Positions 26,808 through 62,628 of a DNA stretch of 64,000 nt are shown here, piece after piece; position 1 is the first letter of the stretch; every line of letters starts with the position of its first letter. The DNA comes from Eledone cirrhosa (Eukaryota), in the NCBI GenBank assembly GCA_964016885.1, contig OZ024742.1, forward strand, positions 214,458,001-214,522,000. Reading direction: 5' to 3'. A model generated the notes under the pieces. The model saw only the letters and a list, made by a program, of their open reading frames with translations. It searched no databases and had not been told where the DNA came from. A program made the position numbers and the translations under genes.

Positions 26808-27050
26808 ATAAATAAATATATATATATATATATAATTATATATTGGTTTACAGATAATTTTGCATACACATTAACAAAATATAAACAAAAGTATTTATTT
26901 CGCGATAAAGTATTAATGTTCTTCGCACAGAATGTACGACGGATTTTTTTCATGAGCACAAAATGTAGACACCGTCCGGAGGCCGAGGAATTCCGTACTT
27001 CTCGGTACTGTTATATATATATATATATATATATATTATTGTTGTTATTA

Positions 27051-29522
27051 CTCTTTGAGTCTCAGTCATTGATGTTAGTTAACTGGAAAGTTTGTTGAAA
27101 TTAATATCAAGCCACTACCTGCAGCCTCATACATACAGGACGTATCGGAGGGTTCTTGCTGTTCCCAGCAAGCATGCCTTTTGAAGCGTTCCAAAAAGCG
27201 TGAAGGGGCCAATTTTCTTTAACCATCCCTGGAAACTTTTTGAGATAGTCCCTAGTGCGCCTATGACAATCGGGATCACTTTGACTTCATGGCAGTTCCA
27301 AGTCCGTTTTACCTCCCACTTTAAGTCCTGGTATCGGTTAATTTTCTCCCTCTCCTTCTCTTGCACTCTCGTGTCGAATGGGCAGGCCACATCCACAATC
27401 AGGCACGATCTTTTTTTCTTTTTCCACAACCACCAGGTCAGGTCTATTGTGTTCCAGTTTCTTGTCAGTCTGTATCCTAAAATCCCACAGCACCTTCACC
27501 TGATCCTTTTCTATCACCGACTCTGGCTTATGCTCATACCACTTCTCAGAATGTGGTAAATTGTTTACTTTGCATAGGTGCCAGTGGATCACCCTGCCCA
27601 TCACATCATGTCTCCATCCCTTATAGTGAGTCTGAGCTAGGTGTTTACACTCGGATACAATGTGAGCCACAGTCTCCTCTCTCTCTCTCCACAGATCCTG
27701 CACAGTGGGCTAGCCTCCTCCTTGTAAATATGGTGTTTCAACCACTTCGATTTGAACGCCTGCTCCTGCGCAGCCATTAACATTCCTTCTGTAGCCTTTT
27801 TAAGGTCTCCTCTTCTCAACCAGTTCCATGTCTGTGGATTTCTAAATTCAGTTTTCTCAAAGAAGGTACTATGAAGGGATTTTTCCTGAAGGCTGCTCTT
27901 TCTCCTTGATGTTATTTTCCCCTTGGACATCCCCTGGCCTATTGTCACCTCCTTCAGTACAGTTCTGATCATTGGCTCCTTACTATCAGTCACGTATTTG
28001 TGTAGGTTGTTTTTCTCCTTCTGAACACAGTCCTCTATGCTGATAAGACCTCTTTCACCCTCAGATCTCCTTAAGTAGAGTCTATCGACATCACTCCTCT
28101 TGTGGAACATGTTGTAGATACTCAATAGCTTCCTAGTCTTCCTATCCATTTCTTTCTGTTCAGCAACATTCCATCTCAGAATTCCCGCACTGTACCTAAT
28201 AATAGACACAGCTTGGGAATTTACTGCACTTATGGCATTTCTACTGTTCAGATGTGACTTAAATACGCTCCTTACTCTCCGAATGTATTCAGTTCTTATC
28301 AATTCCTTCATTTTTTTATTCTTGATGTCATCAGCCTCCAGAACCTCCAAATACTTGTATCCTTCATCAGAGTCAATTTCCTTTATCATCTCAACCGTTG
28401 GTACCTGGATTCCGTTACTTCTGCTCAACTTACCCCTCTTCATCACAATGACTCCACACTTACTAATACCAAATTGCATACATATATCATTGTTGAAAAT
28501 ACGGACAGTGTCAACAAGCACATCCAACTCCTTCTCACTCTTGCCGAAGAGGTTAAGATCGTCCATGAAGATGAGGTGTTTGATGGTAAGCCCTCCCTTT
28601 CCCAACCTGTATCCTGCTCTCACTTTTCGCAGTACACTGGTCAGGGGCATCAGGGCAAGGACAAACAACAGAGGGGACAGAATATCTCCCTGGAAGATAC
28701 CTCTCTTGATCTTAACGCTTCCCAAGGATTCTCCAGTTGATGTTAACTCTGTTTCCCAGGACTTCATACTTTTGCCCAACAACTGTCTGATGTTATCTGC
28801 CACCCTGAAGATCTCCAGGCTTTTGGTGATACAAGAATGAGGCACCATGTCAAATGCCTTTTTGTAGTCTATCCATCCCATGGCAAGACCAGTGTGTCTC
28901 CTCTTGCAATTCCTCATTACCAGCTTATCAATAAGTAACTGGTCCTTTGTACCATGTGACTTCTTTCGGCATCCTTTCTGTTCGTCCGGTAACAGGTTGT
29001 TTGTGTGGAGGTGATGGTAGATTTCCTCAGACATAATGCTTGTCAACAGTTTCCACATTACGGACAGACATGTGATAGGTCTATAGTTGGTAACATCATT
29101 ACCCTTGATTCGGTCTTTCATTATCAGAACAGTGGTACCTTTTGTCAACCACTCTGGTACCTTACCTGACATCAAGCAGTCATTGAACATGGTTGTCAGT
29201 TTCGGGTGGAGGGATGTTATATTTTTAATCCAATACCCCTGCACACCATCTGGGCCTGGTGATTTCCAGTTGGTTAATTTTTTGGCCTGCCCCTTAAGAG
29301 TTTCAACTGTGATACTCAAATCAGTTTGTTGGTGTGCCTGTTCACTAATCTCCTTCTGTACTGTCTCAATCCACACTGCCTGGTCATTATCTTTAACATC
29401 CTGCTCCCATATTCCTCTCCAGAATGTTTTAGTTTGTTCCGCCTCAGGGATCAAGTCGTTGCCTCTTTCTTCCCCTTCAAGCTGTCCAAACAGCATCTTC
29501 TGGTTGTTGTCGAACATGCGGT
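27051..29522 (-). mobile_element. R4/Dong-like RLE non-LTR retrotransposon family A, 5'-truncated, frameshifted
   Basis: WKSPGPDG, YRPITCL, IDYKKAFD, GIFQGDILSP, FMDD, CRIC...HIVSEC, RPDLVV...DVACP; TAA-type tail at 27036-27050. Confidence 0.92.
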
Positions 29523-61965: not shown

Positions 61966-62567
61966 GCTTTATTTATTAACCACATGGGTTTACATAAAGT
62001 AGACATTAAGGACAGTACAGGACAATACAGGACGGTACAAATGGACATTTCTGCGTGTAAAAAAACAAAAACAGAGGATGTAATAAAAATAACAATGAAA
62101 AATTCCACAATAGTGGGGAGATCGGAGGGACATGTGTGGAGAAAGCCCATTAAAAGGCCACAGTGACCCTGACCACCAGGGCAAGTGGCTTCTCCCAGTT
62201 TTCCACCATACTCAGAGTAGCCCATTCACTCGAGCCATTCTTGCTTCTCTCACCCATCTTTCAACAAAATGCTGGGAAGAGAGCACTTCCCTCTCTACTC
62301 TGGTTTTCCTTTTCAAATGAAAGTTGAAAAAGTCAATCAGGGCATCACCGAAGAGGTAAGTGCTCGGCTTCAGCCCTTTCAAACGTGTCCACCATACTAT
62401 CACTTTCGCCATGGCCACCAGACAGATAAAAACTGCCTGCCCTTCCCGGCTAAGGGAAGAGAGCGGGGCAATTCTCACGATGGTCTCAGCTGATAGCCGG
62501 ATCCGTCCTACACGCGACAGCAGGTGTTCGACATAAACCCACAAGTCAGCAATTCTCGGACACTGGA
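61966..62567 (-). mobile_element. Tx1 copy 4, 3'-terminal 600 bp, (TAA)n on both flanks
   Basis: QCPRIADLWVYVEH...ARMARVNG plus 3' UTR. Confidence 0.92.
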
Positions 62568-62628
62568 TAATAATAATAATAATAATAATAATAATAATAA
62601 TAATAATAATAATAATAATAATAATAAT

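Follow-up and report, generated by a model that had tools for sequence, protein, structure and literature searches.

Why two kinds of retrotransposon should accumulate in the same microsatellites and face in opposite directions is the question raised by a 64,000-nucleotide stretch of the Eledone cirrhosa genome (positions 214,458,001-214,522,000 of OZ024742.1, G000:C3, in an assembly of 3.0 Gb; hereafter the window). An earlier note on this DNA proposed that Tx1-like elements with an apurinic/apyrimidinic-type endonuclease (APE) and Dong-like elements of the restriction-like endonuclease (RLE) type share a (TAA/TTA)n niche with strictly opposite polarity. Using self-BLAST, reading of the sequence, Pfam and 20 kb of sequence to the right of the window, we identified 10 elements in two arrays, four Tx1-like and six Dong-like, and the orientation of all 10 was set by the strand of the repeat. 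The best explanation, and probably the right one, is that Tx1 and Dong made two independent target-primed insertions on opposite strands of (ATT/AAT)n.

The polarity rule extended well beyond the window. Neighbouring elements were scored at loci picked by element similarity, a selection enriched for stacks, and Dong and Tx1 neighbours lay in opposite directions in 91 pairs and in the same direction in 2, one of which conceals a short antiparallel Dong piece and the other of which is a 5′ inversion. Dong-Dong neighbours shared their direction in 51/51 pairs and Tx1-Tx1 neighbours in 85/86. The rule that had been described as without exception therefore holds for every window element and for 91 of 93 pairs at these loci, and orientation is not random. 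An arbitrary sample of 40 stretches of 10 kb, taken from fixed arbitrary positions (400 kb in total), contained 7.8 kb of Tx1-like and 6.9 kb of Dong-like sequence (each ~2%), with stacks in two stretches; 12 of its 24 AAT-class tracts touched the end of a Tx1, a Dong or a short interspersed element (SINE), all in the expected orientation. Shared strand-specific targeting by Tx1 and Dong is well supported as a real, genome-wide property.

For Dong, (AAT)4 or more was found within 110 bases of 35/40 full-length heads and (ATT)4 near none of the 40, against a background of 0.43%; 9 of these heads carried the same (AAT)n(AAG)n flank as the Dong-B copy of array 1. At other Dong 5′ junctions, 37/61 adjoined three or more AAT units. 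Insertion in (TAA)n with a sense TAA tail thus holds here for heads, 5′ junctions and 3′ tails. All four window Dong copies that possess a 3′ end finish in TAA-type repeats, as had been noted, but the tail of the copy at 27037 is only short and degenerate, passing into (TA)n at 27012-27036.

The four window Tx1 copies all end in sense (ATT)n (8, 15, 13, and 16 units) and, copy 1 (29523) excepted, also carry it at the 5′ junction; the coordinates bear out the earlier description. Genome-wide, the Tx1 3′ motif was followed by (ATT)4 in 3,076 cases and by (AAT)4 in one, and all 30 sampled Tx1a 3′ ends ran straight into ATT repeats without poly(A). Full-length Tx1a heads were preceded by in-phase (ATT)3 in 2,490/2,585 cases genome-wide (96%) and in 60/60 sampled, so that repeat-free 5′ flanks are the minority. 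Since the head repeat might be an RNA leader, truncated copies were tested. Upstream tracing from the Tx1 3′ end covered 52 loci: 3 could not be parsed, all 30 full-length copies had ATT, and 9 of the 19 scored as truncated had it; on inspection, 5 of the 19 proved to be internal deletions, rearrangements or an inversion, leaving 9/14 that keep the repeat. Chance is excluded, as only 0.22-0.23% of randomly placed trial positions lie at the end of a matching ATT run. Both proportions, 96% of heads and 9/14 truncated copies, exceed the published criterion of >20% of flanks in one repeat type (PMC4494074; this and the other sources are cited for the accessible part of their text).

Further support came from truncations within one 30-base window of open reading frame (ORF) 2, which adjoined (ATT)4 at 50 separate loci, compared with 2 for (AAT)4. 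This search yielded 6,531 anchor matches; the 50 loci were hand-counted from 67 rows and have no denominator of repeat-less truncations, and one 4-base microhomology formed the breakpoint in 23 of them. Head-to-head Tx1-Dong junctions are informative because no tail there can supply the repeat, and they carried ATT in 38/38 full-length and 10/18 truncated cases. At one multicopy host site, three loci contained Tx1b and two contained Dong-B in the antiparallel orientation; no empty copy of this site was present among the loci examined. We conclude that (ATT)n is a pre-existing Tx1 target, and that ~40% of truncated copies lost the repeat or never had it. Young Tx1a copies among those traced upstream (L217-L256) were mostly full-length (14/14 at ≥99%), which is unusual for a long interspersed element (LINE), and one Tx1 copy (L239, G000:C21:7.92 Mb) had a 5′ inversion resembling L1 twin priming.

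A sister Tx1 lineage with ~65-70% amino acid identity to Tx1a in ORF2 was recovered from the 400-kb sample (L297-L341, e.g., G000:C2:160002750). Of its 30 loci, 27 were parsed, and TCTA-type sequence followed the 3′ end in 25 of these and ATTATT in none; roughly half of the truncated 5′ junctions, judged by eye, lay in (TCTA)n. Because this lineage sits in (TCTA)n, the Tx1 target is family-specific. In a quick tree, the TCTA copies formed one group, sister to an ATT family and nested inside the ATT families, which suggests a switch of target from ATT to TCTA; the tree, midpoint-rooted and without a clade test, contained a single TX1-annotated protein (Alligator) and lacked L1, Keno, Kibi and Koshi sequences, and leaves the direction of the switch unproven. 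The endonuclease hairpin loop has been linked to target choice by L1-EN (PMC1950540), and other endonuclease positions differ consistently between the ATT and TCTA families. Whether a LINE owes its choice of target to its APE or to its RNA tail is a standing question for targeted gene insertion, and the two lineages, with ORFs open in the ATT member, form a close natural pair in which to address it.

A third participant may be a 185-base SINE ending in (ATT)n, with a head that we take to be tRNA-like. It gave 73 matches in the 400 kb, occurs in the window at 344-517, 4322-4506, and 24548-24739, and was parallel to Tx1 in 34/35 neighbour pairs, with a tail register like that of Tx1. Exact matches to its head numbered 32,071 genome-wide, some of them densely clustered in tandem near G000:C1:10.32-10.35 Mb; among the 16,080 on the forward strand, 1,199 were preceded by (ATT)3 and 32 by (AAT)3. 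The resemblance of its tail to Tx1 tails was borderline (shuffle p 0.04-0.07, compared with 0.5-0.7 for Dong tails). Independent Tx1 insertions were found in SINE tails, and the SINE is likely to be mobilised by a Tx1 and to provide new targets.

Several observations weigh against repeat targeting by the Tx1 enzyme. The repeat was missing in 5/14 hand-curated truncated copies (10/19 before the 5 mis-chained ones were removed) and in 8/18 truncated head-to-head Tx1-Dong junctions. No empty allele was seen among the loci examined, and in the full-length copies retrieved the interrupted repeats revealed no target-site duplication. Among the sequencing-run contigs listed, none spanned the 29522 junction and none displayed an empty site, blanks that carry no evidential weight. 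The phase of truncated-copy junctions was mixed, masked by microhomology, and for this reason a nick at the T-A step rests on the 3′ junction register and analogy. Only 7.5% of the forward-strand SINE heads follow the repeat, though their polarity matches that of Tx1. Finally, one TCTA-family copy was flanked by ATTATT (L334), ATT and TCTA families have hairpin loops that are identical but for one or two residues, and the ATT-type hairpin residue persists in one copy flanked by TCTA.

In target-primed reverse transcription, the strand that serves as primer is complementary to the 3′ flank of the element. The primer would then be the (AAT)n strand for Tx1 and the (TTA)n strand for Dong, and opposite polarity would arise because each element primes from its own strand, with no need for a partnership. 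The Tx1 APE would nick the (AAT)n strand, probably at a T-A step. The Tx1 transcript, for which the genome shows no poly(A), probably continues past the element into (AUU)n, which then pairs with the primer. The 5′ end would be joined to the other strand, in many cases through microhomology of 1-4 bases, and the repeat would sometimes be lost in the process. In most cases an insertion would split one repeat into two, a gain of target at each locus, and because insertions add targets, polarised stacks could grow without interaction between the enzymes; unequal DNA exchange probably extends some Tx1-Tx1 tandems later. We infer that the Tx1 endonuclease itself is (TTA)n-specific. Of the earlier idea of a (TTA)n-specific APE family that converged on the Dong target, a preferential, one-way insertion into (ATT)n that is shared with Dong survives, but only ~55-65% of truncated copies keep the repeat; likewise, the statement that each insertion leaves repeat on its flanks describes most window junctions but not those at 29522/29523 and ~58811.

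Target-primed insertion finds its support in the flanks, the strand bias and the family specificity, and the main division concerns whether the endonuclease chooses the site, which the sequences make probable, or the RNA tail does, which seems unlikely to us. The latter explanation supposes a loose T-A nickase whose nicks prime only where they pair with read-through (AUU)n, so that target and polarity are inherited via the element's own flank. It would account for the lack of genomic poly(A) at all 30 sampled 3′ ends, for an identical interrupted tail after Tx1a at two unlinked loci (L026, L055) and for a hairpin loop that is nearly alike in the ATT and TCTA families, and annealing of RNA to target is reported to assist SART1 and R1Bm (PMC7265360). 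Against it stand the consistent ATT/TCTA differences at other endonuclease positions, the occurrence of the ATT-tailed SINE mostly outside ATT runs, and the domain swaps in SART/TRAS, in which exchange of the endonuclease shifted the target and moved specificity (PMC7265360). A broader version, which we regard as doubtful, envisages an octopod Tx1 radiation whose target is largely set by repeat co-transcribed from its own flank. Few endonuclease changes would have accompanied its move from (ATT)n to (TCTA)n, and together with antiparallel Dong elements and the very abundant ATT-tailed SINE, a source of new targets, it would form a self-renewing microsatellite niche occupying several percent of the genome. 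If true, this radiation would represent a LINE that is retargetable by its RNA tail.

That the stacks arose mainly by DNA-level duplication, through unequal exchange between flanking repeats, or as assembly artefacts, is improbable. Copies 1 and 2 of Tx1a in the window differ by 32 substitutions, 20 of which are private to copy 1 among 29 copies, and the pair must therefore be separate insertions. The recurrence of (ATT)7-8 spacers had made a single dimeric insertion or duplication a candidate for this pair, and it was rejected on the same 20 substitutions. Moreover, the window stacks combine four families, varied truncation points and varied ages (89-99% identity), and duplication leaves solitary copies in repeats and the antiparallel rule unexplained. 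Elsewhere the picture differs. In a five-copy Tx1a tandem on G000:C2, the left flank has been copied into four spacers that are identical and interrupted; variants and spacers alternate in an ABAB pattern in at least two other arrays; and the sites at which copies of one array differ are polymorphic across the family, a pattern that polishing errors could produce. Taken together, these features suggest that some Tx1-only tandems are products of DNA duplication or of misassembly. Serial insertion, by which the arrays had been thought to grow, is thus upheld for the window pair, but not for every Tx1-Tx1 stack elsewhere, some of which resemble duplications at the DNA level. Tandems with identical spacers, or with ABAB order and mosaic family-wide variants, lie at G000:C2:188050350-188080720, C2:119.78-119.80 Mb, and C4:350.75-350.77 Mb. 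The mosaic haplotypes also brought to mind switching of the complementary DNA template onto resident neighbours, which is inseparable from gene conversion or polishing error and is not claimed.

Two further explanations fare worse. Elements without target preference, carrying or making (ATT)n at both ends and landing anywhere, would agree with the perfect phase at full-length heads (96%), as expected of an RNA leader of repeat, and with the absence of repeat from ~40% of truncated copies. This scenario is largely refuted, and we consider it very unlikely, given the 50 versus 2 truncated copies, the independent insertions in one host site and in SINE tails, the heavy clustering in stacks and, on visual inspection of full-length copies, the lack of any unique-sequence duplication outside repeat runs. 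Equally unlikely is a functional partnership, or an antisense arrangement that produces PIWI-interacting RNA and has been selected by the host: antiparallel neighbours would presumably yield complementary read-through RNA, but Tx1 and Dong RNAs are complementary to each other only at the repeat, neighbours of the same family occur about as often (Dong-Dong 51, Tx1-Tx1 86, Dong-Tx1 93), so that alternation is not strict, and strand-specific insertion accounts for the polarity without selection.

The elements were assigned from features of their proteins. Pfam detected Exo_endo_phos (the APE), RVT_1 and zf-RVT in Tx1 ORF2s (29087-32986 and 35426-39040), the best PDB match of ORF2 was human L1 ORF2p (E 5e-52, versus 1e-21 for R2), and the APE catalytic residues align with those of L1 EN. 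A separate ORF1 with a CCHC knuckle is typical of Tx1, and a CX2CX4HX4C knuckle was visible in the ORF1 of both Tx1a and Tx1b, with no Pfam match to it. The Dong-type elements have a single ORF with reverse transcriptase (RT) followed by CCHC and RLE-type motifs; Pfam returned RVT_1 or zf-RVT and no APE, and in a PDB search the RT was closest to R2 structures and the C-terminal part had no match. A search for homologues of Dong yielded almost exclusively unnamed proteins. RHD and RPD...D motifs, read by eye in that C-terminal part, are presumably of the RLE type. The N-terminal piece had no Pfam match; a Myb/SANT-like domain has been described there for the R4 clade and Dong (PMC7998251).

The elements had been treated as one Tx1 and one Dong family. 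Dong comprises two, Dong-A and Dong-B, with ~35-50% identity in translated blocks, and the Tx1 copies represent two 5′ types on a shared ORF2: Tx1a and Tx1b have 95% DNA identity in ORF2, 54% identity in the ORF1 core and unrelated 5′ untranslated regions (UTRs). The difference (33273-35576 versus 55601-57794) amounts to replacement of a 5′ module. Despite their divergent ORFs, Dong-A and Dong-B share a 5′ terminal block of ~85 bases that is 84% identical (44196-44280 and 62632-62716), and (AAG)n often expands at this 5′ end. The closest named homologue of the Tx1 RT region is from Argonauta hians (74%); the TX1-annotated Alligator protein has 39% identity in the RT region, and the octopod Tx1 group is distant from it (32% over ORF2 195-874). 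An Rfam search of Dong 5′ ends for a ribozyme like that of hepatitis delta virus (HDV) found no ribozyme family at E up to 1, only low-complexity microRNA matches, and simple folds were uninformative. Just upstream of the Dong-B start codon (43200-43310, minus strand) lies a GC-rich, possibly pseudoknotted hairpin cluster without an Rfam match.

Repeat targeting, the use of opposite strands and convergence of APE and RLE elements are principles already published; the ATT target for Tx1 looks new. Microsatellite targets are known for the teleost Tx1-clade elements Kibi, (TC)n, and Koshi, (TTC)n (PMC4494074), and for crocodilian Tx1 families, (TTCC)n/(TTTC)n (PMC4494074, PMC3812793). The suggestion that Kibi and Koshi use other triplets is right for Koshi, but the Kibi target is a dinucleotide. 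Like these, the Eledone elements are two-ORF APE elements that prefer a microsatellite, and they differ in targeting (ATT)n, or (TCTA)n in the sister lineage, a comparison of published targets rather than sequences. The ATT Tx1 thus behaves like Kibi and Koshi but is not filed with them, its target being outside (TC)n, (TTC)n, (TTCC)n, and (TTTC)n. No ATT- or TCTA-targeting Tx1 was found in the literature searched, which covered subscription papers poorly and lay outside Repbase and Dfam; Figure 3 and the supplements of PMC4494074, which list targets, could include an AAT-targeting family. Both repeats would add to the known targets of Tx1-like elements.

Dong, DongAg, DongBg and a Darwinula Dong of the R4 clade occupy TAA repeats (PMC3812793, PMC7998251, PMC3774820), and the Eledone Dong agrees with them in its single ORF, its RT and C-terminal RLE-type motifs and its (TAA)n target. 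Nothing essential differs, except that Eledone harbours two such families, whose tracts are shared with an APE element; an HDV-like ribozyme is reported for Bombyx Dong (PMC3774820) and none was detected by our Rfam search. R4-Dong elements are abundant in cephalopods (PMC10294476, PMC13282606), and Dong-R4 and L1-Tx1 were recently active in Octopus vulgaris (PMC13282606, whose accessible text lacks the word "target"); cephalopod Dong is likewise mentioned without a target in the accessible text of PMC9115989 and PMC10294476. In Bombyx mori, TRAS1 and SART1 insert in opposite directions into one short repeat, telomeric (TTAGG)n (PMC7265360). The parallel of two families, one repeat and opposite directions is clear, but both are APE elements confined to telomeres, whereas the Eledone pair combines APE with RLE and occupies dispersed microsatellites. 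Keno (Tx1, APE) and Utopia (RLE) have similarly converged on one target, U2 small nuclear RNA genes (PMC4640811); unlike the Eledone pair, they share the same 3′ flank and hence the same orientation, in a low-copy gene that is not a self-renewing target. Shared targeting would explain simply why retrotransposons pile up, and why long AAT microsatellites occur, in octopod genomes.

The anatomy of both arrays is given in Table 1. Array 1 (27037-44490) measures ~17.5 kb, and array 2, which begins at 51857 and continues past the end of the window, ~15 kb; the 16 and 11 kb given earlier were too small, as Dong-B reaches ~44270 and a sixth Dong starts at 62630. In Tx1a copy 2, ORF1 (33486-35585) contains the CX2CX4HX4C knuckle, ORF2 (35621-39040) encodes APE, RT and zf-RVT, and AATAAA stands immediately before the repeat, without poly(A).

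Table 1. Elements and repeats of the two arrays, listed in their order along the window (positions are those of the window).
Array	Feature	Position	Strand	Remarks
1	Dong-A, 5′-truncated	27037..29522	-	RVT_1 9e-23; best PDB matches are R2 proteins; BLAST against other copies
1	Tx1a copy 1, 5′-truncated just upstream of ORF2 (ORF2 open)	29523..33248	+	Adjoins Dong-A 5′ end without repeat
1	(ATT)8 spacer	33249..33272	+	Self-BLAST, sequence
1	Tx1a copy 2, full length, 6,032 bp	33273..39304	+	ORF1 and ORF2 both open
1	(ATT)15 tail-to-tail spacer	39305..39349	+	
1	Dong-B, full length, including ~1.1 kb 5′ UTR	39350..44266	-	Single ORF disrupted, longest open piece 305 aa
1	(TCT)n(TTA)~57 compound repeat, Dong-B 5′ flank and right end of array 1	44267..44490	+	
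2	(AAT)13, left end of array 2	51857..51895	+	
2	Tx1b, full length	51896..57794	-	5′ UTR and ORF1 differ from Tx1a; ORF2 frameshifted into three pieces
2	(AAT)24 head-to-head spacer	57795..57866	+	Not suppliable by either neighbour's 3′ tail
2	Dong-A fragment, both ends truncated	57867..58812	+	Fused to Dong-B without repeat
2	Dong-B, 5′-truncated	58811..60815	+	RT end, CCHC, RHD and RPD...D motifs, presumably RLE-type
2	(AAT)8 spacer	60816..60839	+	
2	Dong-A, 5′-truncated	60840..61917	+	
2	(AAT)16 tail-to-tail spacer	61918..61965	+	
2	Tx1 copy 4, 5′-truncated, older, 89% to Tx1a	61968..62566	-	
2	(ATA)21 head-to-head spacer	62567..62629	+	
2	Dong-A, full length, sixth Dong piece	62630..64000	+	Extends ~2.9 kb beyond the window

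Outside both arrays, the window contains a 200-base assembly gap at 6962-7161. Two window ORFs without a Pfam match, 20396-21571 (minus strand) and 15100-15984 (plus strand), have motifs that we take to resemble pieces of Penelope-type RT and GIY-YIG.

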